DNA of 64,000 nt from Acidobacteriota bacterium (GTDB lineage: Bacteria; Acidobacteriota; Thermoanaerobaculia; UBA5066), in assembly GCA_008363385.1 (NCBI GenBank), contig RHKY01000034.1, positions 14,903-78,902 on the forward strand, in the 5' to 3' direction. Each line of letters begins with the position of its first letter. The stretch's first letter is position 1. The notes below the pieces were generated by a model. That model searched no databases. It was not told the DNA's origin and saw only the letters and a program-made list of their open reading frames with translations. Shown here piece by piece: positions 25,501 through 64,000 of this stretch. The translations under genes and the position numbers were made by a program.

Positions 25501-25713
25501 GTCCTCCCCGGCCGCGTCCTCGTCCTCTGCAGGCTCCTGCCGCGCCAGCGTCCTCGAGATGGCACGAGAGAGATGGCGGACGAGCCGCTCCTGGGCCTCC
25601 TCGGCACCGGGACCGTCGTCGACGTCGGGAAGCAGACCGGTGGCCGAGGCCTCGGAGACCAGCCGCTCGAGGGCCCGCGTCAGCAGGTCGTCGTAGATCC
25701 CGGGGCGCGGCAT
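22585..25713 (-). CDS. PLD-family nuclease + SF2 (DExH) helicase + DUF3427-like C-terminal domain protein; restriction/defence-like
   Basis: 1042 aa. The N-terminal PLD/NgoFVII-like HKD motif is RLHAKAWLF...VYVGSANLS. Helicase motifs are VAATGTGKT (Walker A), VVVVDEFHHAAA (DExH), GLTATPER and the motif VI region QQLGRGLR. The C-terminal about 250 aa are conserved-looking (HDYALGPGRFHWQTQ). Confidence 0.8.
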   Translation of the reverse strand: MPRPGIYDDLLTRALERLVSEASATGLLPDVDDGPGAEEAQERLVRHLSRAISRTLARQEPAEDEDAAGEDRVVRLANEALDWLRERGFEDGGEETVVPPLRVLRGIRAGAAPTRRPVTPLDRSVLLTAGRDEPRLGAELAAEMESADEVDALVSFVTWRGWQRVREPVESLLRRKGRFRLLATTYTGATEARALLEIAAMEGAEVRVSYDGRRTRLHAKAWLFRRSNGLSTVYVGSANLSAPALGEGLEWTLKASERESPAVVERFRAAFDSLWDDPEFEAIDPRDPETAARLEGALAQARGVPVSVRGTAFFPDVRPYPFQQEILDRLDAERRLLGKSRHLVVAATGTGKTMVAAFDYRRLRQEKGLAPRLLFVAHREEILDQALQAYRTVLRDASFGERMGGGRTPEAHDHLFATIQSLDRQDLATRLGRTHWDVVVVDEFHHAAAPTYRRLLDVLDPGVLLGLTATPERTDMQDVLSRFGGHPSAEIRLWDAIDRQLVAPFDYFGISDGTDLTAVEWRRGRYVDAGLENVYTGNDARAALVLKQLCEKAGDPMRVRALGFCVGVEHARFMARRFTEWGVPALAVHGGSSDEEREQAPRRLRDGEVSVVFTCDLYNEGVDIPEVDTILLLRPTDSVLLFQQQLGRGLRLSEGKTAALVLDFVGQHRREFRFEAVLRALTGMQRGTLREEVDRGFPLLPAGCSLQLDRIVREQVLAHLRQALDRKKETLVREAREMAGGGGDVTLARFLDETGRELDDVYASSLGSWTAIRRAAGLIGPESGDEELARRLGGLLHVDEPERLSLWKRIPNLGPAEIEALTTADGRRLVMLARRLFPDGAPRTPHGLVARLAYSPAGGELAELAELLLERTPSVSPGASLPPGWALSLHRSYQRDEVLAAVGASTLERKAPSREGVFRMPDQAAELLFVTVEKEARLFRPSTRYHDYALGPGRFHWQTQSTVRSGSPTLRRYTGEDGSGWSFWLFVRERSKDAEGRAVAFTFLGRARYESHEGERPVSIVWRLDTPIPAALHPRLVPAATA

Positions 25714-25766
25714 TCGCGAAGACTACCCCGCGCGTCGTCCGGCCGGGCGCGCCCGGCGGCGCCGGG

Positions 25767-44219: not shown

Positions 44220-44330
44220 GGGGCGGGTACCTCCTTGAGACGGAGTCTAACCTAGCGGTCGAGGCGCACCGTCGGTCTTCGCGCGGCTAACTCGCCGCGA
44301 GTCAGGGCGTACGCGTTGTCCGATCCGTGC

Positions 44331-47300: not shown

Positions 47301-48440
47301 GATCGCGTGGTGGTCGGTCACCCTCGCGTCGTCGACGAAGCGCGGCGGGATCGGCCTCTCGAGCGTCCCCGCCGCGAAGAGCGCCCCGTACGCCGGGGCG
47401 AGCGCGCGCATCACGTCCGGCAGCGTCGCGGCCACGTCGCGCGAGAGGTGGCGGCTGTCGGTCCGCGGGTAGGTGATCGCCTTCTTCTCCTCGTACAGCC
47501 GCTGGGCGACCTCGAGCGTCTTCTTCGCGCTCCACCCGAGGAGGCGGTTGGCGTGCCGCTGCAGCTCCGTCAGGTCGAAGAGGAGGGGTGCGGGCGTCCG
47601 CCGCGTCTTCGCCTCGACCGACTCGACCACGGCCTCGCCCGAGAGGACCCGCTCGACCACCCGCGCGGCCTCGGCGCCGTCCTTCGGCAGGCGCCGGCCG
47701 CCCTCCTCCTTCCTCGCCGGGTCGAACCAGGTCCCGCGGTACCGTCCCGCCTCCACGTCGAACGTCGCGACGACCTCCAGGTACTCCTCGGGGACGAACG
47801 CCCGGATCGACAGCTCGCGCTCGACGACCATCGCGAGCGTCGGCGTCTGGACGCGCCCGACCGTCAGCGTCTCGTCGTGGGCGAGCGTGAACGCCCGCGA
47901 GAAGTTCATCCCGACGAGCCAGTCGGCCCGGCTCCGCCCGCGCGCGGCGTCGGCCAGCCGGTCGTACTCGCTCGCGGGGCGCAGCCGCGCGAACCCGTCC
48001 CGGATCGCCTCCGGCGTCAGGGACGAGATCCAGAGCCGCTTCACCGGCTTCGCGCACCCGGCCGCCTCGTACAGCTGCCGGAAGATCAGCTCCCCTTCCC
48101 GCCCCGCGTCCGTCGCGCAGATCACCTCGGTCACGTGCGGGTCGCGGAGGACCTTCGCGACGGCCTCGAACTGCTCCTTCACGCGGTCGGTCACGACGAG
48201 CGGCCAGCTCGAGGGGAGGATCGGGAGGTGCTCGCGCCGCCAGGCCTTCCACTCCGGGCGGATCTCGTGCGGCTGGGCCAGCGCGACGAGGTGCCCGATC
48301 GCCCACGTCACGACGTGCCCGTCCCCGACGAGGCACCCCTCGCCCCGGCGCGTGGCGCCGAGGACGGCCGCCAGGTCGCGCGCCACGGAGGGCTTCTCGG
48401 CCACGACGGCCACGAGGCCGGAGGCTTGGCTCCTCGTCAT
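44331..48440 (-). CDS. fusion protein: type IA DNA topoisomerase (TopoIII/TopB-like) N-terminal half + RecQ-family helicase with HRDC-like C-terminus
   Basis: A single uninterrupted frame. The Toprim domain is VAVVAEKPSVARDLAAVLG, with the acidic TDAGREGE motif. The catalytic tyrosine context is ITYPRTDSRHLS. A Pro/Ala-rich linker follows, then RecQ motifs: FGHDAFRPYQ, LLVMPTGAGKSLCYQLP, VDEAHCISHWGHDFRP, LTATAT, a Zn/RQC-like TACGVCDVC, and an HRDC-like tail (LRLFRLAEAKRQRVPAFRVFTDETLLAIA). The probable start is the ATG at 48440 (MTRSQASGLVAVV); the track ORF extends to 48638. No in-frame start codon precedes the RecQ part. Confidence 0.75.
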   Translation of the reverse strand: MTRSQASGLVAVVAEKPSVARDLAAVLGATRRGEGCLVGDGHVVTWAIGHLVALAQPHEIRPEWKAWRREHLPILPSSWPLVVTDRVKEQFEAVAKVLRDPHVTEVICATDAGREGELIFRQLYEAAGCAKPVKRLWISSLTPEAIRDGFARLRPASEYDRLADAARGRSRADWLVGMNFSRAFTLAHDETLTVGRVQTPTLAMVVERELSIRAFVPEEYLEVVATFDVEAGRYRGTWFDPARKEEGGRRLPKDGAEAARVVERVLSGEAVVESVEAKTRRTPAPLLFDLTELQRHANRLLGWSAKKTLEVAQRLYEEKKAITYPRTDSRHLSRDVAATLPDVMRALAPAYGALFAAGTLERPIPPRFVDDARVTDHHAILPTPVSPRGLDAEEQALYDLVARRLVAAWHDEHVAATTTVVTAVTSGAGAGALVDRFRSTGTVTEQAGWRAVEPEPASRRKGKGEAGEGTKDGEPDDDASLPPGLARGTRPRVVEASAVERRTRPPKRFTDATLLTAMETAGRTLDEKELAEAMKENGLGTPATRAEILEGLIARGYLQRDGKVLVATDKGIRLIGLVPESVKSPALTGRWEAELARIQRGEARLPAFMASIEEYVREVVGEAGKPPAGSPGASPRPVPEGAPQALAAAASTRARPAPAAAGPASSGDLFAVERPARKPVSPERLGELLKDVFGHDAFRPYQEAVCRAVTAGKDALLVMPTGAGKSLCYQLPGLARAGTTLVVSPLIALMEDQVGKLRALGLAAERIHSGRDRAESRQVCRDYLDGKLDLLFIAPERLSVPGFPEMLAKRTPALVAVDEAHCISHWGHDFRPDYRLLGARLPALRPAPVIALTATATPRVQEDIAAQLGLIAPGRFIHGFRRTNLAVEVTEAPPSRRADLVREVLADPARLPAIVYTPTRREATELAKHLRPRPRAAAYHAGMGTKERDEVQRAFLEGRLDAIVATIAFGMGVDKPDVRTVVHTGLPGSVEGYYQEIGRAGRDGLPSRAILLQSYGDTRMHEHFLARDYPETSDLERVFARLGEDSLPSEDLASRSRLDPETFEKALEKLWIFGGAVVTPEGLASRGKPDWKRPYEEQREFRKTQLVLVRRFAEGASCRMLQLVRHFGDTADPGTACGVCDVCAPGEGLSTRTRRASPMEEAALRRALELLRWKDGQGTGQLHREVEKQFPAVDRRSFEDLLGGLARAGHVTIEDDEFEKDGKTIRFRRAFLTRAGRDPDAEVEARVAVPPPSAAGKKRAKARAPRAALPKPERTGRRRAEPAGGATRAARRAVRPDPPPLVEELRLFRLAEAKRQRVPAFRVFTDETLLAIATSRPRTEDDLLAIPGIGPARAARYGPALLRIVATVG

Positions 48441-48539
48441 CGGACGGGGATGTGTACGCCCCGCCGCGCCCCGGCGCAAGGGCCGGCCGGGGGCGGCCCC
48501 CGAGGCGAGGGACCAGCTCCGAGCCGCTATCATCTCCCC

Positions 48540-48770
48540 ATGGCAGGTGCCGGTTCCGGCCGGGAGTTCGACGTCGTCATCGAGCGGGACGAGGAGGGTT
48601 GGTACGTCGCCTCCGTGCCGGCCCTTCGGGGCTGTCACACGCAGGCCCGTTCGCTCGACGAGCTTCGCGAGCGGATCCTCGAGGCGATCGAGCTCTGCCT
48701 CGAGGTGGAAGGCCCTGCCCCGTCACCCCTCGAGTTCGTCGGCATCCAGCGCGTCCGGCTCGCGTCGTGA
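48540..48770 (+). CDS. HicB-like / UPF0150-family antitoxin-like protein (orphan)
   Basis: 76 aa: MAGAGSGREFDVVIERDEEGWYVASVPALRGCHTQARSLDELRERILEAIELCLEV. This is the tail of the otherwise artefactual track ORF 44316..48770. Confidence 0.6.
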   Translation: MAGAGSGREFDVVIERDEEGWYVASVPALRGCHTQARSLDELRERILEAIELCLEVEGPAPSPLEFVGIQRVRLAS

Positions 48771-52687: not shown

Positions 52688-52879
52688 CTACAGGAGCTTC
52701 CGCCGGACGTCGGCGCCCGCGAGCAGCTCGTCGCGCGCTGCGAGGTACTCCTCGATGGCGGCCCTTGCGTTCTCCACGGCCTCCGCTTCGGTCGCGCCCT
52801 GGGACCAGCACCCGGGCAGACCAGGGACCGAGACGCTGTAGCCCTCGTCCGTCTTCTCCAGCACGACCTTGTAGACCAT
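52688..52879 (-). CDS. HicB-like / UPF0150-family small protein (orphan)
   Basis: 63 aa: MVYKVVLEKTDEGYSVSVPGLPGCWSQGATEAEAVENARAAIEEYLAA. This is the tail of the artefactual track ORF 52688..54304. Confidence 0.6.
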   Translation of the reverse strand: MVYKVVLEKTDEGYSVSVPGLPGCWSQGATEAEAVENARAAIEEYLAARDELLAGADVRRKLL

Positions 52880-52953
52880 CCGGCCTCCGGCAGCAGTATA
52901 GGTTCTCTCGCCGGCGCGGTCGGGCCCGCCATAGGCCCTTTCGGGCCGCGCGC

Positions 52954-53865
52954 CTACCCGCGGACGTAGAGGAGGGCGTACGTGAAGAAGATGACGACGT
53001 CGGGGATGACGTGGATGAGCCAGGGCCAGAGCATCCCGCGCGTCTCGAGCATCGCCTTGCCCATCAAGTAGGCCAGGAACCCCGTCATCGCGGCGCCCGG
53101 GATCCCGGGGGGCGAGCCGTGGAGGTAGTGCGCCAGGCCGAAGAGGACGACGCAGACGAGGAGCGCGTGCCCCCGGCCGAGCGGCCCGAGCAGCGTCGAC
53201 AGGATCGACGCGCGGAAGTAGGCCTCCTCGGTGAACGCGTTCACCGCCGCCAGGACGAGGCAGGCCGGCAGCAGCGGGAGCGCGCGCAGGAGGAGCTCGC
53301 CGGAGGGCTTCAGGCCGATCAGCGTCGGGACGAGGACACAGAGCCCCGCGACGACGCCGAAGATGACCGCGAACTTCGGCCACGGCTCCGGGCGGCGGAT
53401 CCCGAGCCACGGGACCGGCTCGATCGGGGCCTTCAGGTCGCCGACCGCCAGGAAGAACTCCTGCCGCCGCTTCTTCAGCAGCCAGAGGACGCCGAGGACG
53501 GCCGCCGCCACCGCGATGTCGAGGACGAAGAGCGCGGCGTACCCGGTGAAGAACGGGACCCCCTGGTAGTTGAAGCGCTCCTGGAACCACGCCGTCGTCC
53601 GGACGAGGCCGGCGGCGCCGAGCGCGGCGAAGAGGGTGAAGAGGACGACGGCGTAGTGGAGCAGGGGCCTCAGCGCCCGCGACGCGAGCGTCAGCCCCGT
53701 GAAGAGGACGAGGAACGCGATCTTCGCCCCGGCGAGCCACCCCGGGGCCCGACCGCCGGCGTGCTGGATCACGATCTCCGGAAGCTCCGAGACGAGGAGC
53801 ATCGCGCCCCACGCGACGACGGTGAGGAGCCGCGAGCCGGCGGCGGACTCGGACGGCGCTGACAT
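52954..53865 (-). CDS. CPBP-family intramembrane metalloprotease (CAAX protease / Abi)
   Basis: 303 aa, polytopic, with the EEAYFRASILSTL (EExxxR) and FGLAHYLHG (FxxxH) motifs. Confidence 0.8.
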   Translation of the reverse strand: MSAPSESAAGSRLLTVVAWGAMLLVSELPEIVIQHAGGRAPGWLAGAKIAFLVLFTGLTLASRALRPLLHYAVVLFTLFAALGAAGLVRTTAWFQERFNYQGVPFFTGYAALFVLDIAVAAAVLGVLWLLKKRRQEFFLAVGDLKAPIEPVPWLGIRRPEPWPKFAVIFGVVAGLCVLVPTLIGLKPSGELLLRALPLLPACLVLAAVNAFTEEAYFRASILSTLLGPLGRGHALLVCVVLFGLAHYLHGSPPGIPGAAMTGFLAYLMGKAMLETRGMLWPWLIHVIPDVVIFFTYALLYVRG

Positions 53866-53979
53866 CGCCGGAGACGATACCGCCGTGATCCGCGCCCGGG
53901 AGGTGCGGAATCCGCCGGACGGCGTCGTCGCGGGATCGCCGGATTCGGCGGGATTGGCGCGTCGGCGTAAGATTTCCTC

Positions 53980-54189
53980 GTGCCTCGTCCGCCGACACCT
54001 CCCGACCGGGACGACGTGCCTGCCGTCCCTCCTTCGCCGGTGATCGACACCGCCGAGATGTGGGAGAACCTCTGCCGGGCCGACGAGCTGTTCGAGGAGT
54101 GCGAGGCGCTTTCTCTCGGGCAGAGGGGCAGCCCGGCGGAGCCGTCCACCCCGGCCGAGAGCGCTCCCGGATGCGACCGGGCCGGCTGA
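53980..54189 (+). CDS. small hypothetical protein, possible partner of the downstream nucleotidyltransferase
   Basis: 69 aa. The tail ...PVIDTAEMWENLCRADELFEECEALSL has protein-like composition. The start is uncertain (internal MWENL possible). Confidence 0.3.
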   Translation: MPRPPTPPDRDDVPAVPPSPVIDTAEMWENLCRADELFEECEALSLGQRGSPAEPSTPAESAPGCDRAG

Positions 54190-54689
54190 TCCGCGCCGCC
54201 CGAGAGCTCGCCGCTGTTCTGGGCGAGGGCTCCGCGCTCGCGGGCGGGCTGGCCGTCGCGGCCTGGGGCGAGATCCGGGCGACCCGCGACGTCGACTTCG
54301 TCACGGCGCTCCCTCTGCACGACGTCGAGCGCCGTCTGCGCGAGAACGGAATCGCCTACGTCGCCAGGCGGGGCGACGTCCTCACGGGTGATCTGCCGTG
54401 GGTCGTGGAAGGGGACCTCGGGGGAGTGCGGTTCCAGGTCTTCGCTCCCCGGGGCGGACGTCCCTTCACGACGGTATCGGTGACACCCGTCGGTGCCGAC
54501 ACGGAGTCCGTTCCCGTCGTCTCTCTCGAGGACCTCCTTCGCCTGAAGCTCGAGGCCGGAGGGCCGAAGGACCTCTGGGACGTCGCCCGGTTGCTCCGTC
54601 AACACCCGGAGCAGCTCTCGCGGACCCGGGCTCGCGCCGCCTCCCTCGGGATCGACGACGAGCTCGCCCGCTGGCTCGAGCGGGAGTAG
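54169..54689 (+). CDS. nucleotidyltransferase-fold protein (MNT / AbiEii-like)
   Basis: About 173 aa starting MRPGRLIRAARELAAVLGEGSALAGGLAVAAWGEIRATRDVDFV. The G[GS]...D.D pattern is typical of minimal nucleotidyltransferases. Confidence 0.55.
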
Positions 54690-54732: not shown

Positions 54733-56598
54733 TCAGTTCACGGCGACGGAGGACCCGGTCGCCAGGGCGCGGATGACGTCGGCGATGGCGCTGGCGGGTT
54801 CCGGGTAGAGGCCTGCCTCCGCGAGGACCCGGCGGCAGTCGTCGCAGAAGGTCGCCTCTCGCAGCTTGCGGTCGAGGCCCGCGCGGTCGGCGCAGAAGTC
54901 GTAGAGGCAGCCCCGGTCCTCCGGGTGCATCACCCGCTCGGGGACGATCCCCCGCTCGCGCAGGCCGTGGAGGAACGTCTCGTACGCCACGAAGGCCGCA
55001 GGGGGGACCGTGGTCACCTCCGCGAGCCCGGCGACGGACGCGATCGCCACGTCGTGGGCCGGGTGCCAGTGAGAGAACCAGCCGTCCGCGAGCGGCCGCC
55101 TCGTGACGAAGACGAGGACCCGCGCCGTCTCGATCCGGAACCAGCTCCGGAGCCTCTCCGCGACGCGCGCCTCCTCGTCCGGCGGCAGCGGCGCCCTCTC
55201 GTCCCAGTCCTGCGGCAGCTCCCCCATCTCGAGCGGCTCGGCGTAGCCCTGGAAGACCGGGCGGCGCGAGGACCGGAAGGCGTCCGCGGACTCCTCGAGC
55301 GCCGCCAGCAGCCCTCTCCCCGACATCGTCAGCGTCCGGAGCGGGCTCTCCTTCAGGATCACCCCGCGCATGGCCCGCCCCTTGAGCGAGTAGTAGACCC
55401 CGGCGTGCCGCATCTTCAGGAGCCTGGGGTCCATGCTCCGCGACACCTCGACGCCGAGGGCGCGGAGGCGGGCGGCAATCGCCAGCACCTCGGGGTCGCC
55501 CCCCGCGTGGAGCCTGAGGCGCTCCGACGTGCGGGTCACGAGCGCCCGGGCGCCTTCGCGGTCCCCCTCCCGGTTCAGCTCCAGCGCCCTCCTGGTGCAG
55601 CGAAGCTCCTCCAGCCGCGCCCGCTCCCGCCGCAAGTCGGCGTCGGCGGGCTGCCGGTCGTTCTCCGCGTGAGAGGCCGCCGTGAACGCCAGCTCCACGG
55701 GCGCGGTCCCGGCCGGCTGGCCCCGCGACAGGAGCTCGAACCGCACCGGCAGCCCGTCACCCGCAGCCGCCGGCGGGAACCGGACGTCGAGCAGGACGGA
55801 CAGCCGCTGCTCGGACACCAGCGAGCCGATCGCCACCCGCGAGGACCCGTCCTCCTGCCGGACCGGGAAGCCGTTCGGGCACTCCACGTCCAGCCCCTCG
55901 GGACCCCGGACGGAGATCTCGGCCTCGGGGATCGCGACGCCGAGAGCCTCGGTCACCTCGTCGGAGACGTACTGCGGGATCTCCTCGGCCGTCGCCACGA
56001 ACCGGAAGTTCCCGCCGCCGGCCTCGGCCATCGCCGAGAGGAGCCCCTCGTCGTAGTCGGCGCCGACGCCGAAGGTCGAGGTCGTGACGCCCGAGACGCG
56101 CCGGTCGGAAGCCTGGCGCGAGATCTCCGCCCGGTCGGTCAGGCCCTGGTTCGCCAGCCCGTCCGAGAGGAGGAGGACGCGAGCCAGCCGCTGCTCCGAG
56201 AGAGAGCCGAAGGCCTCCTGGCACCCCAGCTCCCAGCCCCCGTGCAGGTTCGTCGAACCTCCCGCGGTCACCCTCTCGATCGTCCGGGAGGCGGCGTCGA
56301 CCGCCTGCGGCGAGACGTCGACCGAGGCCTGCAGGACGTCGACCCGGTCGTCGTACACGACGACGGCGAACCGGTCCCCCGGCGAGAGCGACCGGATCGC
56401 CGAGGCGGCCGCCTGCCGGGCCAGATCGAGCTTCTTCCCCCCCATCGAGCCCGACCGGTCGAGGACGATCGACAGGGCGAGCCCCGGGCGCTCGGCGCCC
56501 GGCGCGGCCTCGGGGGCCGTCACCTCCACCCGGACGACGCGGCGGCTGCGCACCCCGGCGCGGACGAGGGAACGGTCGAACCTGGCGCGGAACTCCAT
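54733..56598 (-). CDS. vWA-domain protein with conserved C-terminal Cys4 domain (paralog A)
   Basis: 621 aa. A GGAGG ribosome-binding site precedes the start. The vWA MIDAS motif is LSIVLDRSGSM...LLLSDGLAN...TSTFGVGADYDE. A middle domain follows, then a C-terminal block (HPEDRGCLYDFCADRAGL...ATFCDDCRRVL) with four Cys. Confidence 0.8.
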   Translation of the reverse strand: MEFRARFDRSLVRAGVRSRRVVRVEVTAPEAAPGAERPGLALSIVLDRSGSMGGKKLDLARQAAASAIRSLSPGDRFAVVVYDDRVDVLQASVDVSPQAVDAASRTIERVTAGGSTNLHGGWELGCQEAFGSLSEQRLARVLLLSDGLANQGLTDRAEISRQASDRRVSGVTTSTFGVGADYDEGLLSAMAEAGGGNFRFVATAEEIPQYVSDEVTEALGVAIPEAEISVRGPEGLDVECPNGFPVRQEDGSSRVAIGSLVSEQRLSVLLDVRFPPAAAGDGLPVRFELLSRGQPAGTAPVELAFTAASHAENDRQPADADLRRERARLEELRCTRRALELNREGDREGARALVTRTSERLRLHAGGDPEVLAIAARLRALGVEVSRSMDPRLLKMRHAGVYYSLKGRAMRGVILKESPLRTLTMSGRGLLAALEESADAFRSSRRPVFQGYAEPLEMGELPQDWDERAPLPPDEEARVAERLRSWFRIETARVLVFVTRRPLADGWFSHWHPAHDVAIASVAGLAEVTTVPPAAFVAYETFLHGLRERGIVPERVMHPEDRGCLYDFCADRAGLDRKLREATFCDDCRRVLAEAGLYPEPASAIADVIRALATGSSVAVN

Positions 56599-56616
56599 GC
56601 TGCACCTCCCCCGGTC

Positions 56617-58482
56617 TCAGTTCACGCCCCCGGCCGCGGCGCCCGCGAGCGAGCGGATGACGTCGGCGATCGAGAGGGCCGGCTCCGGGAAGAGGCCCGC
56701 CCGCTCGAGCACCTGGCGGCATTCGTCGCAGAAAGTCGCCGTAGAGAGAGCGCGCTCGAGTCCCTCCCGCGTCGTGCAGGGGTCGTAGAGGCAGCCGCGG
56801 TCCTCCGGGTGCGTCATCTCCTCCGGCACGATCCCCCGTTCGCGCAGCCCGTGCAGGAACGTCTGGTAGGCCACGAACGCCGAGGGGCTCACTCCGCCGG
56901 GGGCGCAGAGCCCCGCCGTGGAGGCGATCGCGACGCACAGGTCCTCGTGCCAGTGCCAGGGCGCGGCGCCGGCGAGGGGCCGCGACGTGAAGACGACGGT
57001 GACGGGGATCTGGTCGGGCCTCCAAAGGACCCGTACCTCGCTGGCGAGGAGGTCCTCGTCGCTGGCGGTCAGTGGCGCCCGCGCATCCGGGGGCTCCGGC
57101 AGCGGCCACTCCACGAACAGGTCCGGGTAGCCTCCGAAGGACTGCACCGGAGCCGCTCGGTAGGCCTCCGCCGCCTCCTCCAGCGCGGGGATCAGGTCCA
57201 GCCTCGCCGTCGTCATCGTCCGGAACCGGCTCCTGATGACGGTCGTGCCCCGGACGGCCCGTCCCTTGATCGAGTAGTAGGCCCCCGCGTGGAGGAGTTT
57301 CCGCGTGACGGGGTTCATCTCGCGCGACACCTTCTCGGCCTCCTCCCCCAGCCGTCCGGAAATCGCCTCCACCTCGGGGTTCCCCGGCGCGTAGAGGAGC
57401 AGCTGCTCGGCCGCCTTCACCGCCACCGCCGCGGCGCCCCTGTAGTCGCCGTCGCGGTTCAGCTCGAGGGCCTTCCTCAGGCTCCGCTTCTCCTCCACCC
57501 TCGCCCGCTCGCGCTGCACCTCCTCGTCGGCGGGCTGCCGGTCGTTCGCCTCGTGCCCGGCCACGGTGAAGACCAGGTCCACGGGCTCGCCCCCGGCAGG
57601 CTCTCCCCGCGAGCGGAGCCCCAGCCGCACCGGCAGGGCATCCCCCTCGGGGGCCTGCGGGAACCGGACGTCGAGCAGGAGCGAGAGCCGCTGCTCGGAG
57701 ACGAGCGAGCCGATCGCCACGTGGAAGGCCCCGTCCACGCGACGCACCGGGAACTCGTTCGGGCACTCCACCTCCAGCCCCTCGGGCCCCCGGACCTCGA
57801 TCTCGGCCTCGGGGAGGGAGAGCGCCAGAACCTCGCTCATCTCGTCGGAGACGTACCGCGGGATCTCCCCGGCCGTGGCGACGTAACGGAAGTTGCCGCC
57901 ACCCGCCTCGGCCATGGACGAGAGGAGCCCCTCGTCGTAGTCCGCGCCGATGCCGAACGTGGAGGTCGTCACGCCCGAGAGGCGCCGCTCCGACGCCCGA
58001 CGGGCGATCTCGCCCCGGTCGGTCAGCCCGTGGTTCGCCAGCCCGTCCGAGAGGAGGAGGACCCGCGCCAGTCGCTGGTCCGAGATCGACCCGAAGGCCT
58101 CGCGGCACCCCGCCTCCCACCCGCCGTGCAGGTCCGTCGAGCCCAGCGCCTCCACCCGCTCGATCGTCCTGGCCGCGGCGTCCACGGACTGCGCCGAGGC
58201 ATCCACGGCCGCCTGCAGCACGTCGACCCGGTGGTCGTAGACGACGACGGCGAACCGGTCCCTCTCCCCCAGCGAGCGGATCGCCGAGACCGCCGCCTCC
58301 CGGGCCAGCTCGATCTTCTTCCCCTCCATCGAGCCGGACCTGTCGAGGACGAGGGAGAGGGCAAGCCTCGGGCGCTCGGCGCCCTGGGCGGCCTCGGGGG
58401 CGGTCACGTCGACCCGGACGACCCGCCGGCTCCGTGCCCCGGCGCGGACGAGGGAACGGTCGGCCCGTGCGCGGATCGGCAT
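56617..58482 (-). CDS. vWA-domain protein with conserved C-terminal Cys4 domain (paralog B, about 70 % identical to A)
   Basis: 621 aa from an ATG preceded by AGGAGG (MPIRARADRSLVRAG...). The architecture matches paralog A (LVLDRSGSM ... HPEDRGCLYDPCTTREGL ... ATFCDECRQVL). The track ORF runs on to 58773 through artefactual sequence. Confidence 0.8.
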   Translation of the reverse strand: MPIRARADRSLVRAGARSRRVVRVDVTAPEAAQGAERPRLALSLVLDRSGSMEGKKIELAREAAVSAIRSLGERDRFAVVVYDHRVDVLQAAVDASAQSVDAAARTIERVEALGSTDLHGGWEAGCREAFGSISDQRLARVLLLSDGLANHGLTDRGEIARRASERRLSGVTTSTFGIGADYDEGLLSSMAEAGGGNFRYVATAGEIPRYVSDEMSEVLALSLPEAEIEVRGPEGLEVECPNEFPVRRVDGAFHVAIGSLVSEQRLSLLLDVRFPQAPEGDALPVRLGLRSRGEPAGGEPVDLVFTVAGHEANDRQPADEEVQRERARVEEKRSLRKALELNRDGDYRGAAAVAVKAAEQLLLYAPGNPEVEAISGRLGEEAEKVSREMNPVTRKLLHAGAYYSIKGRAVRGTTVIRSRFRTMTTARLDLIPALEEAAEAYRAAPVQSFGGYPDLFVEWPLPEPPDARAPLTASDEDLLASEVRVLWRPDQIPVTVVFTSRPLAGAAPWHWHEDLCVAIASTAGLCAPGGVSPSAFVAYQTFLHGLRERGIVPEEMTHPEDRGCLYDPCTTREGLERALSTATFCDECRQVLERAGLFPEPALSIADVIRSLAGAAAGGVN

Positions 58483-58702
58483 GCGGCACCTCCTGCGGGC
58501 CCCTCGCGAGACTCCCCCGGCCCCCTCCGCGAGGCCCCGTGTACAAGGTGAGTCCACACCGGGACAGAAGGTGTCCGTATCTCCCGACCGGCCGCCTCGA
58601 GATTCCCTCTTCCGCCGGGGATGGTCCGATCCGCTACCGGGCGTCGCCGGTCCCTCCCGACACCGGCCACGGGTCGGTCTCGACGGGTGTGAGAATGCCG
58701 CC

Positions 58703-58954
58703 GTGAACCCCAGGAAGCTGCTCGAGCGGGCGCTCCGGTCGCCGCACAACCTTCGATTCGTCGAAGCGTACACATTGGCCGAGGCCTTTGGCTTCCGCCT
58801 TTCTCGCGTCAGCGGCAGCCATCACATCTACACGCATCCCGGCATTCCGGAGCTGCTGAACCTCCAGGAAGTCCGCGGCCAGGCCAAGGCCTATCAGATC
58901 CGCCAATTGCTTCAGCTCGTCGAACGGCATAACCTCGAGATCGGCGGCGCGTGA
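58703..58954 (+). CDS. hicA: HicA-family toxin (YcfA-like mRNA interferase)
   Basis: 83 aa, GTG start: VNPRKLLERALRSPHNLRFVEAYTLAEAFGFRLSRVSGSHHIYTHPG, the HicA fold signature. Confidence 0.75.
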   Translation: MNPRKLLERALRSPHNLRFVEAYTLAEAFGFRLSRVSGSHHIYTHPGIPELLNLQEVRGQAKAYQIRQLLQLVERHNLEIGGA

Positions 58955-59172
58955 TGAACGACTACCACATCAACATCTTCCCGAGCGAGGAGGACGGGGG
59001 CTACATCGCCGACATCCCCGACCTCTCCCATTGCTCGGCCTTTGGCGAGACCCCCGAAGCCGCGCTCGCCGAGGTCCTGAAGGCGAAGCAGGCCTGGCTG
59101 GAGGCCGCCCGCGTCGAGGGGAAGCCGATACCCCCGCCGTCCTTCCGTCCCGCGATCTATCAGGTCGCGTAG
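58951..59172 (+). CDS. hicB: HicB-family antitoxin
   Basis: 73 aa: MMNDYHINIFPSEEDGGYIADIPDLSHCSAFGETPEAALAEVLKAKQAWLEAARVEGKPIP. A 4-nt overlap with hicA. Confidence 0.75.
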   Translation: MMNDYHINIFPSEEDGGYIADIPDLSHCSAFGETPEAALAEVLKAKQAWLEAARVEGKPIPPPSFRPAIYQVA

Positions 59173-59498
59173 GCGGTCCCCCCGCTCGGCCGATCCCTTC
59201 CCCGTCCCGGAAACCGGACACCATCTGTCGGTGCGCGGATTGCATCTTCTTCCGTGACGGCAGGCGCCCGGGGCTCGCGGCTCTCGCCCCCCGGCGCCTC
59301 CGGCGGCGACCTCGGCGTTCTTTGAAGTCCAGGCGGCCCCCCGTTCCCGGGGCCGCCGGCATGAAGAGTGGCGGCGAGAGTTCCGGCTCGCAGACCCGCC
59401 CGCCAGACCGTAGTCCTCGACGGTGGCCCAGCCGGCCCGGCCGAAAGGCCGGGACCCATGCGCGACGGGAACGGACCCTCTCTCGCGAAAGGACACCC

Positions 59499-61016
59499 AT
59501 GCCGCGCAAGGCCCGCCCCCGGGTCTCCCCGCCGCCCCCGGCTCCCGCTCCGGCTCCCGCGCCGGTCCCGCCTCCGGCTCCCGCTCCGGTTCCTGCGCCG
59601 GTTCCCGTGCCGGATCCCGCGCCCCCAGCTGCCCCGGCCGGCCCGCCGCGCGTCCGGTTCCTGCGGCTCCTCGGCCTTCACGGCTGGGACGGGCTCGACG
59701 CGCCCGTCCTGGCCGCGCTCGCCACCGAGTCGCCGCTCCTCCTGATCGGCCCGCACGGCAGCGGGAAGACCATGGTCCTGAACCGGCTGGCCGAGGCGCT
59801 GGGGCTCGTCCACCGCCACTACAACGCCTCGCTCCTCTCCTTCGACGACCTCGTCGGCTTCCCCGTCCCGCGCGACGGCCGGCTCGAGTGGCTGCAGACG
59901 CCGTCCACGATCCACGGCGCCGAGTCGGTCCTCTTCGACGAGGTCTCGCGCTGCCGTCCCGAGGTGCAGAACAAGCTCTTCCCCCTCGTCCACGAGCGGG
60001 TCCTGATGGGCGTGGCTCTGCCTCGCCTCGTCCACCGCTGGGCGGCGATGAACCCGCCGCCGGCCGAGGGGACGGACGAGGGCTACGCCGGCGCCGAGCC
60101 GCTCGACGTGGCGCTGGCGGACCGCTTCGCCTTCGTCCTGAGCGTCCCCTCCCTGGCCGACCTAGGCGCGGAGGACCGTCGCCGGGTCCTGCGTCCCGGG
60201 GCCTTCCGCGCGCGGAGGGCGGGGCGGGCCGTCCGGCGGCTGGTCGCCGCGGCCCGGAGGCACACGCGCCGGCTCGACGCGGCCGCCGGGGACGCCGCGG
60301 CGGAGTACGTCTCCCTCGTCGCCGACAGGCTCGGCGAGGCGGGGCACCCGCTCTCGACGCGGCGGGCGCAGCAGCTCGTGCGGAACGTCGTCTCGGTCCG
60401 CGGCGCCACCGCGGCGCTCGGGGGAGCGGACGACCCCGAGGGGGACGCCCTCACCGCGCTCCGGTCGTCGCTCCCCGACGCGGCCTGGGGCCAGCCGGTT
60501 CCCCCGAACGCCGTCCTCGCCGCCCACCGGATCGCCTGGAACGCGGCGGCGCTCCCTCCCGACTCCGCGAGGCGCCGCCTCCTGACCGCGACCCGCCCCG
60601 AGCAGCGGATCGCGCTGGCCCTCGTGGACGGGATCCCGCGCGACGAGGCGACGCTCGCGCTCGCCGACGCGTACGCGTCGCTCTCCCTCCCGTCCCGCCT
60701 GGTGACGGCGGCGATCCTGATGCCGGTCCTCTCGCGCCGGACGGACCTCCCCGCGATCGCTCTCGAGGCCGTCGCCACGGACTGGGCCCGGCTCGCCGCC
60801 GACGACCGTCCGTACGTCTTCGTCTACGCCTCGGACGGCTGGAAGCGGACGATCCTCTCCACCTACCTGCCCCGCCTCGCGGACGACTCGCCCCGCAGCC
60901 TCGCGCTCTCGGCCGTCGCCGTCGCGCTGGTCCGGGAAGGGACGCGCTTCGATGTCGCCGAGCTCGAGGCCGCCTGGGACCGGACGCGCGCGGCGCTCGG
61001 GGGGAGCCTGCCGTGA
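59499..61016 (+). CDS. MoxR-family AAA+ ATPase with Pro/Ala-rich N-terminal extension
   Basis: About 505 aa, ATG preceded by AAGGA (MPRKARPRVSPPPPAPAPAPAPVPP...). Walker A is LLLIGPHGSGKTMVLNRLAE, Walker B / sensor is ESVLFDEVSRCRPEVQNKLFPLVHERV, and an Arg-finger region follows. The N-terminal part of track ORF 59031..61016 is not coding. Confidence 0.8.
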   Translation: MPRKARPRVSPPPPAPAPAPAPVPPPAPAPVPAPVPVPDPAPPAAPAGPPRVRFLRLLGLHGWDGLDAPVLAALATESPLLLIGPHGSGKTMVLNRLAEALGLVHRHYNASLLSFDDLVGFPVPRDGRLEWLQTPSTIHGAESVLFDEVSRCRPEVQNKLFPLVHERVLMGVALPRLVHRWAAMNPPPAEGTDEGYAGAEPLDVALADRFAFVLSVPSLADLGAEDRRRVLRPGAFRARRAGRAVRRLVAAARRHTRRLDAAAGDAAAEYVSLVADRLGEAGHPLSTRRAQQLVRNVVSVRGATAALGGADDPEGDALTALRSSLPDAAWGQPVPPNAVLAAHRIAWNAAALPPDSARRRLLTATRPEQRIALALVDGIPRDEATLALADAYASLSLPSRLVTAAILMPVLSRRTDLPAIALEAVATDWARLAADDRPYVFVYASDGWKRTILSTYLPRLADDSPRSLALSAVAVALVREGTRFDVAELEAAWDRTRAALGGSLP

Positions 61017-61363
61017 GCCCGCCCGCCCTCCTCCACAACGTCGGGATGCCGTCCGGGACCCCCGTCAACGTCCGGCCCCCGATCCTCGCCGGCCTGGCCT
61101 TCCGCTGGAGCGTGCCGCGCGACAGGATGGTCGCGAAGGCGCGCTCCGAGGCGATCGCGGCGGCGCTGGCGGAGCTCGGCGTCCCCGACCTCGTCGGCGT
61201 CTTCCTGGCCTCGTACCCCGGCACGGCGATCCCCCTCGCCCCCGGGCCGGCGCTCCACGGCCTCTTCCAGCGCCGCTCCGGGCCGCTCTACCTGCCCCAC
61301 CGCCCCCTCACGTCCGCGCCCGCGAGGCGGTACGACCCCTTCACCCTCGTCTTCCCGACCTGA
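61013..61363 (+). CDS. small hypothetical protein translationally coupled to the MoxR ATPase
   Basis: About 116 aa from a GTG overlapping the MoxR stop (GTGA): VSPPALLHNVGMPSGTPVNVRPPILAGLAFRWSVPRDRMVAKARSEAIAAALAELG... The composition is protein-like. Confidence 0.4.
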   Translation: MSPPALLHNVGMPSGTPVNVRPPILAGLAFRWSVPRDRMVAKARSEAIAAALAELGVPDLVGVFLASYPGTAIPLAPGPALHGLFQRRSGPLYLPHRPLTSAPARRYDPFTLVFPT

Positions 61364-61374
61364 GAAAGGTGGCC

Positions 61375-62727
61375 GTGAGCCGATCCGACCTGACCCTCCG
61401 CATCCTCCACGCCGTCCCGTCCGCCGCCTACGAGATGCAGGGGCTCCTCTCGCTCCTGGCAGTGGAGGAGTCCGAGGCCGTCCCCACCGCCGCCGTCTCC
61501 TGCGAGCGGCGGCCCGTCCTGCGCGTCAACCCCCGCTTCGTGGCCGAGCGGTGCCAGGCGCCCGAGCACCTGCTCCTCCTCGTCCTGCACGAGCTCCACC
61601 ACGTCCTCCTCGGGCACACGCGCCTCTTCCCGCGCGCCACCCGCGCCCAGAACGTCGCCTTCGACGCCGTCGTCAACGCCCTCCTCTGCGCCCGCTTCCC
61701 CGACCAGGCCTACACGTCCTTCTTCCTCGGGCTCTACGGAAGGGAGCACGGTCCGCTCCGGCTGCTGGCGCCCCCGCTCGCCGTCCGCGCGCCGGCGCCG
61801 CTGGACGCGCTGCACAGCAGGCTCTACGCGAGCGACGGCGGCGCCACGGCCCGGGAGGTCTACGAGGCGATCGTCCGGGAGGTCGACGCGCTGCCGGACG
61901 GGGAGGGCGGCGACCCGGAGGACGCCCCTCCCCTCCTCGGCGGCCACGGCGACGAGGGAGAGGAGGACTGGGGGACGGCCGGCCCGCTCGCCCGGGACGT
62001 CGTCGACGCCGTCCGCGAGATCGTCGAGCGCTGGCCGGCGCCCGCCTGTCCCGAGCGCGGCCGGAGCCTCACCGACCTCCTGCGGGAGACGCGGGTCCGG
62101 TCCCTCCGGCCTCCCGAGACCGTCCTCTCCGCGGTCAGGCGCGCTCTCGACGCCGCGTCGAACCCGAGGCGGCGCGGCACCCTCCGCGGCGGCGCGGTCC
62201 CCGCGCTCCTCCCCCTCCCGTCCCTCCGCGACCGGCGCGCCTCCGTCCTGCGCCAGTCGGGGAGCGAGCCGCTCTTCTTCGCGGGCGAGACCCGGTCCGC
62301 CGCGGGCCGGCGCGCCGGCTCGACGAGCGTCTACCTCGACGTCAGCGGCAGCATGGAGGGCTACCTCCCCGCTCTCTACGGCGCCTTCCGGGCCCTCCGC
62401 TCGCGGATCGACCCGGACGTGCGGGTCTTCTCCACGCGCGTCTTCCGCGTCCCGCTGGAGCAGCTGGTCGCGGGGAAGTGCAAGAGCACCGGCGGCACCG
62501 ACGGCCGGGCGGCGCTCCTCGACGCCCTCGCGTCCCGGGCCCGCCGGGTCCTTCTCGTGACGGACGGGTACGTCGGCAGGCCGGACCCGGAGCTCGCCGC
62601 CCGCGTCCGCCGCGCCGGTCTCGAGGTCCGCGTCCTCCTGACGCCGGGCGGCTGGCGGGACGACCTCGCGGCCCTGGCCTCGCGCGTCGACGTCCTGCCG
62701 GCCCTGACGGAAGGAGGTGCGGCGTGA
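61375..62727 (+). CDS. HExxH metallopeptidase-like N-domain + vWA domain protein (DUF2201/CoxE-like MoxR partner)
   Basis: About 450 aa from a GTG with AAAGGTGG upstream (VSRSDLTLRILHAVPSAAYEMQGLLSLL). The HExxH motif is LLLVLHELHHVLLGH. The C-terminal vWA/MIDAS is VYLDVSGSMEGYLPALYGAF...VLLVTDGYVG. The start coordinate is good to about 3 nt. Confidence 0.75.
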   Translation: MSRSDLTLRILHAVPSAAYEMQGLLSLLAVEESEAVPTAAVSCERRPVLRVNPRFVAERCQAPEHLLLLVLHELHHVLLGHTRLFPRATRAQNVAFDAVVNALLCARFPDQAYTSFFLGLYGREHGPLRLLAPPLAVRAPAPLDALHSRLYASDGGATAREVYEAIVREVDALPDGEGGDPEDAPPLLGGHGDEGEEDWGTAGPLARDVVDAVREIVERWPAPACPERGRSLTDLLRETRVRSLRPPETVLSAVRRALDAASNPRRRGTLRGGAVPALLPLPSLRDRRASVLRQSGSEPLFFAGETRSAAGRRAGSTSVYLDVSGSMEGYLPALYGAFRALRSRIDPDVRVFSTRVFRVPLEQLVAGKCKSTGGTDGRAALLDALASRARRVLLVTDGYVGRPDPELAARVRRAGLEVRVLLTPGGWRDDLAALASRVDVLPALTEGGAA

Positions 62728-63695
62728 GCGGCCCCCGCCTGCGATTCGCCGAGGCGGTCTGCTCGGGCCACCCCGACCGGCTCGCCGACTCCGTGGCCGA
62801 CCGGATCGTGGACCTCGCCCTCTCGCACGACGGCGACGCGCTGGTGGCCGTCGAGGTCGCCCTCTTCCGGGAGGCGGTCTTCGTGGACGGCCGGATCGCG
62901 GCCGGGGAGACGTGCGACGCCGCCGTGTCGGAGGCGGAGGTCGTAAGGGCGGTGCGGGACGCCTACCGCGCGGCGGGCTACGAGGGGCCCGTGCACGTCC
63001 CCCCGCAGCTGTACGAGCCCGATCCGCACGCCCTCGCCGTCCGGCTCGACCTGTGCCTCGGCCCGCTCGGCCCCGGCGAGCGCGCCACGCGGCTCGTCGC
63101 CGACGACCAGGTGATCGGCGTCGGGTACGCCTGTCGCGGCGAGCGGGCCGGCCTGATCCCGCTCGAGCAGGCCCTCGCGCGCGACTTCGTCGCCGCGCTC
63201 GAGGGCCTGAGGCGGGACCGGCCGGACCTGTACGGCCCCGACGGCAAGGTCCTCGTCGCGGTCCAGGGGCGCCGCCTCCACGCCGTAGCGCTCGCCGTCC
63301 ACCACGCCGTCGAGGCGGACTGGCTCGGCCTCGTCGCCGCCACGAAGCGCGCCTGCCTCGCGGTCGCGGACGAGTACGTCGCATCAGGGGAGCTCGACCC
63401 GCCCGGCGAGGAGGTCCCGTGGCTCTTCAACGGCATGGGGCCTTTCTCCGTCGGCGGGCCGATGGCCGACAACGGCCTCTCCGGCAAGAAGCTGGTCGCC
63501 GAGGCGTACGGCACCTTTGTCCCGGTCGGCGGCGGCACCGTCCACGGCAAGGACCCGAAGAAGCCCGACGTCCGCGCCCAGCGGATCGCCCGCGAGCGTG
63601 CCGTCGCCCTCGTCCGCGCCGGCGCCCCCGAGGCCACCGTCTGGGTCGTCTTCCGCCCCGGCGACACCGATCCCGCCTGGATCGAGGAGGGGTGA
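62724..63695 (+). CDS. archaeal-type S-adenosylmethionine-synthetase (MAT, PF01941)-like protein
   Basis: 323 aa from a GTG (GGAGG upstream) overlapping the previous stop. GHPDRLADSVADRIVDLAL resembles the archaeal MAT N-terminal GHPD motif, and FNGMGPFSVGGPMADNGLSGKKLV resembles its C-terminal Gly-rich loop. The assignment is from motif recall only. Confidence 0.4.
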   Translation: MSGPRLRFAEAVCSGHPDRLADSVADRIVDLALSHDGDALVAVEVALFREAVFVDGRIAAGETCDAAVSEAEVVRAVRDAYRAAGYEGPVHVPPQLYEPDPHALAVRLDLCLGPLGPGERATRLVADDQVIGVGYACRGERAGLIPLEQALARDFVAALEGLRRDRPDLYGPDGKVLVAVQGRRLHAVALAVHHAVEADWLGLVAATKRACLAVADEYVASGELDPPGEEVPWLFNGMGPFSVGGPMADNGLSGKKLVAEAYGTFVPVGGGTVHGKDPKKPDVRAQRIARERAVALVRAGAPEATVWVVFRPGDTDPAWIEEG

Positions 63696-64000
63696 AGGGA
63701 CACGGCCGACGCGACGGACCGGCGCTCGCCGCTGATGCTGCGGTCAGGCACCGCTCACCCTCCTCGGCGTGGGCTCCGCTCGTGAGGCCGGACCTCCTCT
63801 CCGAAGCGACGAAGCTCCCCCCGGTCGTCTGCCCGGCCGGCCCCCCTCTACGTCGCCTTCCGGGTGCTCGTCCTCCTCCCGGGTCCCCGCGCGGAGGCGC
63901 CGGGCCCGACGGGGAGCGGCCGTCCCGGCACCAGCCCGCGCAGGAACGTCTCGACGGGGAGGCACCACACGTCGCCGACCCGGAGCCTCTCCGTGCCTCG

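Follow-up and report, generated by a model that had tools for sequence, protein, structure and literature searches.

MoxR-type AAA+ ATPases act in couples with proteins that carry a von Willebrand factor A (vWA) domain, in which the metal ion-dependent adhesion site (MIDAS) captures a peptide and ATP drives remodelling. What client such a couple serves, and whether in metabolism or in biological conflict, is the question raised by a locus at positions 54,733 to 63,695 of a 64,000-nt stretch of contig RHKY01000034.1 (assembly GCA_008363385.1, positions 14,903 to 78,902, forward strand) from an Acidobacteriota bacterium of the Thermoanaerobaculia lineage UBA5066. We refer to the whole stretch as the window. 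An initial annotation, made from the sequence, had described the locus as a candidate NTP-dependent conflict system of eight genes: two vWA paralogs, a hicAB pair, a MoxR ATPase, a small protein, a protein that joins a HExxH module to a vWA domain (HExxH-vWA, here called the adaptor) and an enzyme resembling archaeal methionine adenosyltransferase (MAT). Our analysis indicates that the last four genes very probably form one functional unit, in which the client or effector would be an enzyme related to S-adenosylmethionine (SAM) synthetase, MetK, with an altered acceptor pocket.

Gene calls were based on an open reading frame (ORF) listing with inspection of start codons, and domains were assigned by Pfam. 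All eight genes were recovered where the initial annotation had placed them or very near (Table 1), and Pfam backs the gene types with matches to VWA, HicA, HicB-like, AAA_5, DUF2201_N plus VWA_CoxE, and S-AdoMet_synt models. We scanned the GTDB, with one genome per species, using an alignment of the MetK-like family as query, and in the 77 resulting loci the neighbouring genes were sought among six-frame ORFs with iterated hidden Markov models built from the window proteins. Canonical metK genes (Actinomycetaceae, Aquificota and others) accounted for 46 loci, which were set aside. Forty-five of these hold a plain full-length metK (~400 aa; a few are cut or fragmentary) and no MoxR or vWA gene nearby; the 46th (L035) has a canonical metK beside a decayed copy of the operon.

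The short MetK-like form was present at 31 of the 77 loci. Directly upstream of it lay the adaptor gene at 28 of the 31, and at the other three the contig begins inside the MetK-like gene. MoxR was found at 23 loci; the remaining five of the 28 lie on contigs that stop within the adaptor gene or shortly before it. Gene-neighbourhood conservation had been proposed as a check on the annotation, and wherever it could be assessed the adaptor gene (28/28) and the MoxR gene (23/23) were syntenic with the small and MetK-like genes. The hosts belong to Acidobacteriota (Holophagales, Vicinamibacteria, Thermoanaerobaculia), Planctomycetota, Verrucomicrobiota, Chloroflexota and Actinomycetota, with one metagenome-assembled genome (MAG) labelled Gammaproteobacteria. 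The same four-gene order was seen on metagenome contigs with homologs of 56–61% identity, and one database protein of 776 aa (P0351) is a fusion of the adaptor with the MetK-like enzyme. Across the loci the Walker A and B, HExxHxxxxH and MIDAS residues are kept. Synteny, fusion protein and conserved motifs together rule out a chance association, and we therefore conclude that MoxR, the small protein, the adaptor and the MetK-like enzyme very probably constitute one functional unit of four genes. The idea that the whole eight-gene locus is a single obligate system did not survive the comparison: conservation with the operon does not extend to hicAB, and the vWA paralogs accompany it only facultatively (7/28 loci).

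The MetK-like and adaptor proteins of the window are 99–100% identical to proteins of WBZR01004677 (assembly GCA_009612875.1, 'Acidobacteria bacterium ACD', a metagenome), and the next-nearest genomes are Holophagales MAGs at ~70% identity. Frameshifts occur in some of the soil MAG loci (L005/L012, L016, L019, L041, L088) and may be assembly errors. On JASNYI010000003, a contig of a Thermoanaerobaculia MAG, we observed two operon copies ~20 kb apart (L017 and L035) with internal deletions or fusions, reflecting either decay or an assembly artefact.

The enzyme encoded at the end of the operon is not of the archaeal MAT type first proposed for it; it matches the bacterial/eukaryotic families PF00438, PF02772 and PF02773 as well as TIGR01034. 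In the Pfam search S-AdoMet_synt_N and S-AdoMet_synt_C passed their cut-offs and S-AdoMet_synt_M fell below. Residues 4–318 align with solved SAM synthetases (best E-value 1.7e-28), and the three-domain fold of MetK/MAT (EC 2.5.1.6) is thus shared at the sequence level. The protein has 323 aa compared with ~380–400 for canonical MetK; the alignment stops at about residue 320–338 of solved MATs, and ~60–75 C-terminal residues are missing. Against the metK equivalog model TIGR01034 it scored 123.5 bits, where the cut-off is 309.4. Approximately 590 homologs were found in the protein database at E≤0.001, and the best 120 of these are ~320–390 aa long.

Active-site residues were mapped in E. coli numbering on an alignment of 36 family members and seven canonical MetKs; the positions of the E. 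coli reference agree with those of six canonical MetKs from the scanned loci. According to the literature on the E. coli enzyme (PMC1282579, PMC3853416), His14 is catalytic, Asp16 and Asp271 are metal ligands and Glu42 is a K+ ligand; Asp163 and Asp238 bind the ribose, Phe230 stacks on the adenine, and lysines 165, 245, 265 and 269 contact the triphosphate. Glu55 binds the amino group of methionine and Gln98 its carboxylate (same sources). His14, Asp16, Glu42, Asp118, Asp163, Lys165, Phe230, Asp238, Lys245, Lys265 and Asp271 are kept in all 36 MetK-like sequences, and Lys269 in 35. The two methionine ligands are replaced throughout: Glu55 by Arg and Gln98 by Val, Ile or Leu (36/36 each), corresponding to Arg57 and Val106 of the window protein, and Arg244 is Lys, again in 36/36.

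The catalytic His, the Mg2+ and K+ ligands, the lysines and the Asp and Phe residues of MetK are therefore common to both families, which differ in that the MetK-like gene always follows MoxR and adaptor genes, in the C-terminal truncation and in the altered acceptor residues. A bona fide MetK was rejected as an identification, given the sub-cut-off equivalog score, the length of 323 aa and the replacement of Glu55 and Gln98. We predict an enzyme active on ATP with a second substrate other than free methionine: since the ATP machinery is intact and the methionine pocket rebuilt, it would transfer the adenosyl group to a non-methionine nucleophile or simply destroy ATP. With Arg in place of Glu55 and with Gln98 lost, the acceptor is possibly a peptide-bound or acidic thioether or thiol.

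No phage, plasmid or viral contig holding the short MetK-like family, or the pseudo-metzincin domain described below, was found in the phage and plasmid collections or in IMG/VR. A tblastn search of the collections with the MetK-like protein returned canonical MetK only (30–34% identity), and an IMG/VR scan with the family alignment gave only canonical-type metK at ~30–36% identity (one at 43%). In IMG/VR, 56 predicted viral or proviral contigs carry metK matches, at least one of which (L169) is the same Schaalia contig as a locus of the genome scan (L059); this suggests prophage-borne SAM synthetases. Several Actinomycetaceae (Arcanobacterium, Mobiluncus, Varibaculum) have two full-length metK genes (L044/L048, L047/L053, L057/L066).

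The MoxR protein passes the Pfam AAA_5 cut-off (6.1e-11) and carries Walker A GPHGSGKT (residues 84–91) and Walker B LFDEV (145–149), both conserved across 20 loci, followed by a C-terminal extension of ~170 aa. Approximately residues 1–50 are Pro/Ala-rich and non-conserved. Its nearest solved relatives are the AAA modules of Midasin, and NorQ. The adaptor begins with a putative metallopeptidase module containing HELHHVLLGH (72–81; DUF2201_N, E-value 0.006) and ends with a vWA domain with the MIDAS elements DVSGSM (322–327), ST (353–354), GGTD and TDG, for which VWA_CoxE is the best vWA match (28.1 bits; cut-off 26.4). The HExxHxxxxH and DVSGSM…ST…TDG motifs are conserved in 25 loci, and many adaptor homologs carry PF05762, PF13203 or PF09967.

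The small protein between them had no match in Pfam, NCBIfam, PADLOC or PHROG. It contains the motifs LLHN (6–9) and LYLPHRP (92–98) and a C-terminal LVFP, and is detectable by sequence in the acidobacterial loci. In the Planctomycetota loci the same slot is occupied by a related protein (hhalign probability 87%, E-value 3.7e-6), with LLHN common to both. The Met of LLHNM was considered as an adenosylation target and dropped, as the window protein has Val and one planctomycete sequence Leu at this position.

Both minus-strand genes do encode 621-aa vWA proteins, as first described, but they are 65% rather than about 70% identical. Identity falls from 80% in the vWA domain to 55% in the helical bundle and 47% in the C-terminal alpha/beta domain, a pattern expected if the C-terminal half, the most diverged, carries specificity. 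The MIDAS of paralog A is complete (D47-x-S49-x-S51, T116, D146). In its AlphaFold model (pLDDT, the predicted local confidence score, 86; 89.7 for the last 207 residues modelled alone) N-terminal strands are followed by the vWA domain, a beta-sandwich, the helical bundle and the alpha/beta domain, which ends in a Cys cluster.

In the AlphaFold2 model this C-terminal domain has a metzincin-like fold, with modest TM-scores, and a CX4C…CXXC cluster. The four Cys noted earlier are present as C564-x4-C569-x15-C585-x2-C588 and with H558 make up a Zn-type motif; H558, C564, C585 and C588 are invariant, but C569 is Cys in only 27 of the 38 family sequences. The archaemetzincin consensus is HEXXHXXGXXHCX4CXMX17CXXC (PMC3427221). 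HExxH occurs in none of the 38 family members, which have YExxLHG instead (Y539-E-T-F-L-H544-G in paralog A; paralog B has Gln rather than Glu at position 540), and, again unlike archaemetzincins (M54; PDB 3lmc, 2x7m, 3zvs), the domain lacks the Met after the second Cys. A bona fide archaemetzincin peptidase was rejected, with the catalytic HEXXHXXGXXH absent in all 38 members. A profile search of PDB sequences and a Pfam search of 19 members gave no significant match (Peptidase_M54 reached E-value 0.39 in one member), and the link to archaemetzincins is therefore drawn from the fold and the Cys motif only. The domain is probably a non-catalytic, Zn-stabilized pseudo-metzincin that serves as a binding or sensor module.

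The vWA-paralog family is rare: a set of 1.84 billion proteins contains 205 representatives of it at E≤0.001. Forms of ~420 aa without the C-terminal domain are common in it. SIR2 and TIR domains are hallmark NAD-targeting effectors of defence. The pseudo-metzincin signature HxxxRGC-x4-C…CxxC is found at the N-terminus of P0484 (502 aa, SIR2_2) and P0495 (552 aa, SLOG+TIR_2), and the domain also occurs in proteins of ~450–670 aa that have no Pfam match (e.g. P0477, P0485). These associations suggest that the pseudo-metzincin is a so far unnamed sensor domain belonging to conflict systems. An IMG/VR scan returned no viral relatives of it, and a narrower metagenome scan with the domain gave mostly contigs too short for judging synteny.

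All-against-all clustering of the ORFs flanking the 28 operon loci yielded only three recurring families outside the core: the vWA paralogs (seven loci), a CN_hydrolase gene (four loci) and generic Ser/Thr kinases. The vWA-paralog gene occurs in the window, L012, L014, L016, L035, L088 and L091. In the window it is found on the upstream side in divergent orientation and in L012 on the downstream side in convergent orientation; L014, L016, L088 and L091 have it downstream, behind the CN_hydrolase gene. The CN_hydrolase gene (nitrilase superfamily, ~420 aa; e.g. L091 12427–13683) is convergent to the MetK-like gene, precedes the vWA gene and could be a further accessory component in the acidobacterial lineage. 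L088, which was found from a distant vWA homolog, has the full operon 5–9 kb away and a HicB-like gene, and in L085/L095 a remnant of the adaptor gene adjoins a vWA-family gene. In L087 a vWA-family gene is accompanied by a MerR gene only and no operon. With seven of 28 loci in varied arrangements and the operon-less L087, the paralogs are linked to the operon repeatedly though not obligately, and only within Acidobacteriota. We read the paralogs as facultative sensor or adaptor partners of the same MoxR ATPase.

A MerR-family gene stands immediately upstream of the distant vWA-pseudo-metzincin homologs in both L085 and L087. Another MerR gene (L090 46–498) precedes the gene of a VIT-vWA protein near a further operon copy; the window has none. 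Canonical metK genes with Glu55 and Gln98 intact lie near the vWA-pseudo-metzincin gene in L035 (15432–16643 and 17205–18776, respectively) and in L085 (14893–16014 and 10001–11932), both contigs also bearing an operon remnant. This proximity may be accidental, may mark a hot spot of insertion or may stem from a functional link to SAM synthetases.

The hicA product exceeds the HicA_toxin cut-off (29 versus 27 bits), and that of hicB falls below the HicB_lk_antitox cut-off of 27 (23.7 bits, E-value 5.8e-5) and matches PHROG 497 (HicB-like) at 1.2e-8. The order, a small HicA-like gene and then a HicB-like gene that overlaps it, is that of type II HicAB systems; we interpret the pair here as a passenger beside the operon. 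Since a hicA homolog turned up close to just one of the 77 genome-scan loci (L035), and hicB-like genes in L010, L035, L041 and L088 stand at varying positions, we judged hicAB, which sits between the divergent genes, to be an independent type II toxin-antitoxin pair.

The remaining flanks vary from locus to locus. Toxin-antitoxin genes include VapBC, PIN/Phd, DUF433/PIN, HigB-like/HTH, HigB/Gp49, BrnA and HicB, and there are GmrSD, PLD nucleases, AAA_13, HATPase_c_3, UvrD-PDDEXK, TerY-P-like sets, a VWA+PP2C+kinase set and WYL regulators. An aggregated PADLOC search of 88 flank proteins gave strong matches to mREase_IV and to helicase- and kinase-type defence models, to be read without a background control.

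A PADLOC-DB 2.0 search with the eight proteins of the locus found no matching system, and scans of NCBIfam and PHROGs gave no system-level match either. The literature searched on MoxR/vWA with SAM synthetase, on DUF2201, on MetK-like proteins and on MetK in phage defence does not describe the operon. The combination thus has no described counterpart in the models and papers searched, as the initial annotation had surmised, and we therefore class it as a MoxR-vWA-centred module with a new client or effector and a new accessory domain. Like CbbQ/CbbO with Rubisco, NorQ/NorD with NO reductase, CoxD/CoxE and RavA/ViaA, it brings together an AAA_5/MoxR ATPase with Walker motifs, a MIDAS vWA protein and an enzyme gene. 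The expected logic is that of these four couples, in which the vWA protein captures a client peptide and the ATPase remodels the client. The operon differs from them in its MetK-fold client, so far unreported among MoxR systems, in the N-terminal HExxH zincin module of the adaptor (DUF2201_N-like), in the conserved small fourth protein and in its variable, island-like context instead of a metabolic operon.

Several explanations compete with an operon of this kind. The locus shares with the systems of Kaur, Burroughs, Iyer and Aravind (2020; eLife 9:e52696) a MoxR and vWA core with peptidase-type modules, one of them fused to a vWA domain, as well as extra components, diverging vWA paralogs and a patchy phyletic pattern including Planctomycetota, Chloroflexota and Actinomycetota. 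Its zincin beside a small, fast-evolving protein recalls the zincin and small-peptide 'peptide-processing' add-on of those systems, and the MoxR protein reaches 16.5 bits against the bpMoxR Pfam model, below the cut-off of 27. That it is one of their ternary systems, of VMAP, iSTAND, FtsH or beta-propeller type, is nevertheless very improbable. A search for VMAP-C or iSTAND-type domains had been suggested at the outset, and by Pfam none of the eight proteins contains a VMAP-type, STAND NTPase, FtsH or beta-propeller domain, the C-terminus of MoxR not having been searched by profile-profile comparison for iSTAND. The gene order is MoxR-small-vWA-enzyme instead of VMAP-MoxR-vWA, with hicB upstream of MoxR; the effector has a gene of its own, the MetK-like one, rather than being attached as domains to the vWA protein; and radical-SAM/SPASM and AP-ATPase partners are lacking. 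The N-terminal motifs WxhapG and PsWRxa of MoxR proteins in VMAP systems (eLife 9:e52696) are absent from residues 1–75, a Pro/Ala-rich segment with a single Trp, in HGWDG. We regard as equally far-fetched a housekeeping maturation pair of the CoxD/CoxE type for a nearby metalloenzyme (cox or cytochrome bd oxidase), the outcome named beforehand as fatal to a conflict role. VWA_CoxE is indeed the best vWA model for the adaptor and cydAB lies within the window (48.8–51.2 kb), but the flanks of the 28 loci show no recurrence of cox, cyd or any other metalloenzyme gene, and the MetK-like gene is the sole constant neighbour. It is quite possible, though on balance we doubt it, that the vWA-pseudo-metzincin paralogs, with hicAB, are independent elements that merely share variable genomic islands with the operon. 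The paralogs are missing at 21 of the 28 loci, including all non-acidobacterial ones, one family member occurs without the operon (L087), position and orientation vary, and the ~420-aa forms do without the C-terminal domain. Yet a family this rare lies within 10 kb of the operon at 7 of 28 loci, which is hard to obtain by chance; it also adjoins operon remnants in L085/L095 and L035, and the paralogs have no ATPase of their own, whereas vWA/MIDAS proteins usually pair with a MoxR-type partner.

The main alternative keeps the four-gene unit and makes it metabolic: MoxR and the vWA adaptor would be a dedicated chaperone or 'activase' that matures, reactivates or regulates a novel adenosyltransferase, as CbbQ/CbbO does for Rubisco and NorQ/NorD for NO reductase, the product being a SAM-like metabolite of normal physiology with no part in conflict. 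The best-studied MoxR-vWA couples mature or remodel a neighbouring client, NorQ is among the nearest solved relatives, and full conservation of the catalytic residues indicates a genuine enzyme; strict synteny and the fusion protein suit a chaperone-client pair equally well, and the missing PADLOC match and the canonical metK genes beside vWA-family genes and operon remnants in L035 and L085 also fit. We consider this alternative possible but rather unlikely, as the operon is scattered over several phyla with flanks that differ nearly everywhere and show no recurrent metabolic partner genes, toxin-antitoxin and nuclease genes abound in the neighbourhoods, the region has no SAM riboswitch or other Rfam element, the domain of the accessory vWA protein is elsewhere fused to SIR2 and TIR, and a peptidase module on the adaptor is unusual among maturation factors. 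Our preferred reading, that the operon serves biological conflict (anti-phage or anti-mobile-element defence), has in our estimate about an even chance of being correct. The NTP-dependent conflict system of the initial annotation thus stays plausible, on the strength of the patchy distribution, the toxin-antitoxin- and nuclease-rich flanks and the SIR2 and TIR fusions of the paralog domain, but it is not a described ternary system.

A number of observations weigh against the conflict reading or the evidence on which it is built. Classical MoxR-vWA pairs are mostly housekeeping maturation factors, no publication or PADLOC model covers the operon, and the only PADLOC matches, to mad8 (1.3e-4) and PDC-M54A, are weak and lie at the MoxR P-loop. 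The neighbourhood evidence is qualitative, without a genome-background control. Related soil MAGs supplied several of the supporting loci, which are perhaps not independent, and the seemingly decayed operon copies may be errors of long-read assembly. Position Gln98 falls in a loop where the alignment is less certain than around Glu55. The absence of vWA paralogs from most loci and the paralog of L087 count here as well, as do the metK genes 0.6–3 kb from vWA-family genes in the unrelated contigs L035 and L085, which hint at a tie with SAM metabolism.

Under the conflict reading, and by analogy with established MoxR-vWA couples, the vWA/MIDAS domain of the adaptor would hold the MetK-like enzyme, the small protein or both, and a MoxR hexamer would use ATP to remodel the complex of adaptor and client. 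The small protein or the MetK-like enzyme may be a cleavage substrate of the HExxH module, and capture, remodelling and cleavage together would gate MetK-like activity. The enzyme thus gated would spend ATP on an adenosylated product that acts as a toxin or signal, or would deplete ATP with release of tri- or pyrophosphate. The vWA-pseudo-metzincin proteins would provide this MoxR ATPase with substitute or extra adaptors or sensors, and the two diverged paralogs of the window would widen the range of recognition. At its most specific, and here we are decidedly tentative, the proposal is a new immune module: a trigger perceived through the small protein and/or the vWA-pseudo-metzincins would pass via MoxR-vWA to ATP cleavage by the MetK-like enzyme, whose adenosylation of a non-methionine nucleophile would yield a new signal or toxin of adenosyl-sulfonium type, or an ATP collapse resembling abortive infection, with the pseudo-metzincin as an unnamed sensor shared with SIR2 and TIR effectors.

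If this is true, prokaryotic conflict systems would gain a new effector chemistry, a MetK-fold enzyme of adenosyl transfer or ATP cleavage, and the MoxR-vWA 'thresholding' machine a defined client that can be assayed. The MetK-like family, with ~590 homologs and an altered pocket, would be a lead to a possibly new adenosylated metabolite. The pseudo-metzincin domain, rare and not in Pfam, would tie vWA proteins to SIR2 and TIR effectors as a candidate sensor module. Under the metabolic alternative, too, a MoxR-vWA activase for an enzyme of the SAM synthetase kind would be new biology.

The features of the locus are listed in Table 1. The window has a G+C content of ~74%. GTGA overlaps, first thought to join all of the last four genes, are present at two of the three junctions (MoxR/small protein and adaptor/MetK-like) and also between hicA and hicB, but the small gene and the adaptor gene are spaced by 5–11 nt without overlap. 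In the divergent intergenic region, sequence scans picked up neither a consensus promoter or terminator nor an Rfam element, and scans of the locus for Rfam elements (gathering thresholds, SAM riboswitches included), promoters, terminators and repeats found nothing.

Table 1. Genes and intergenic region of the MoxR-vWA locus (window coordinates)
Feature	Position	Strand	Product and domains
vWA paralog A	54733-56598	-	621 aa; Pfam VWA
vWA paralog B	56617-58482	-	621 aa; domain order as in paralog A
Divergent intergenic region, vWA paralog B / hicA	58483-58702		
hicA toxin-like gene	58703-58954	+	83 aa; Pfam HicA_toxin
hicB antitoxin-like gene	58951-59172	+	73 aa; Pfam HicB_lk_antitox (below cut-off), PHROG
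MoxR-clade AAA+ ATPase	59499-61016	+	505 aa; Pfam AAA_5
Small protein	61013-61363	+	116 aa; no known family
HExxH-vWA (zincin-vWA adaptor)	61375-62727 (alternative start 61369)	+	450/452 aa; Pfam DUF2201_N + VWA_CoxE
MetK-like enzyme	62724-63695	+	323 aa; Pfam S-AdoMet_synt N/M/C

On the far side of the vWA paralogs, a small toxin-antitoxin/Abi cluster (52688–54689) separates the MoxR locus from cydAB, the cytochrome bd genes ~3.5 kb away, and a short-chain fatty acid transporter gene. It comprises an orphan HicB-like antitoxin gene (52688–52879, minus strand), a gene for a CPBP/Rce1-like intramembrane protease (52954–53865, minus strand) and an AbiEii-like nucleotidyltransferase toxin gene (54060–54689, plus strand). 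Downstream of the operon and convergent with it lies an AAA_14 + DUF4143 ATPase gene (63744–64000, minus strand, cut by the window end; L001 4542–5759); it is followed on the source contig by genes for a Sel1-repeat protein and for a histidine kinase/response regulator pair.

Further off in the window, all on the minus strand, are three large genes. One (22585–25722) encodes a 1045-aa protein with a PLD-like nuclease, a ResIII/SNF2-type helicase and DUF3427, an architecture of defence type. DpdF-like helicase models scored E-values of ~0 in the aggregated PADLOC scan, in which matches were not attributed to single proteins. The second (44331–48722) encodes a 1463-aa fusion of Toprim/topoisomerase (TopoIII-like), RecQ helicase and HRDC, and adjoining it is the third (41535–44246), for a 903-aa Ser/Thr kinase with PD40/WD40 beta-propeller repeats.

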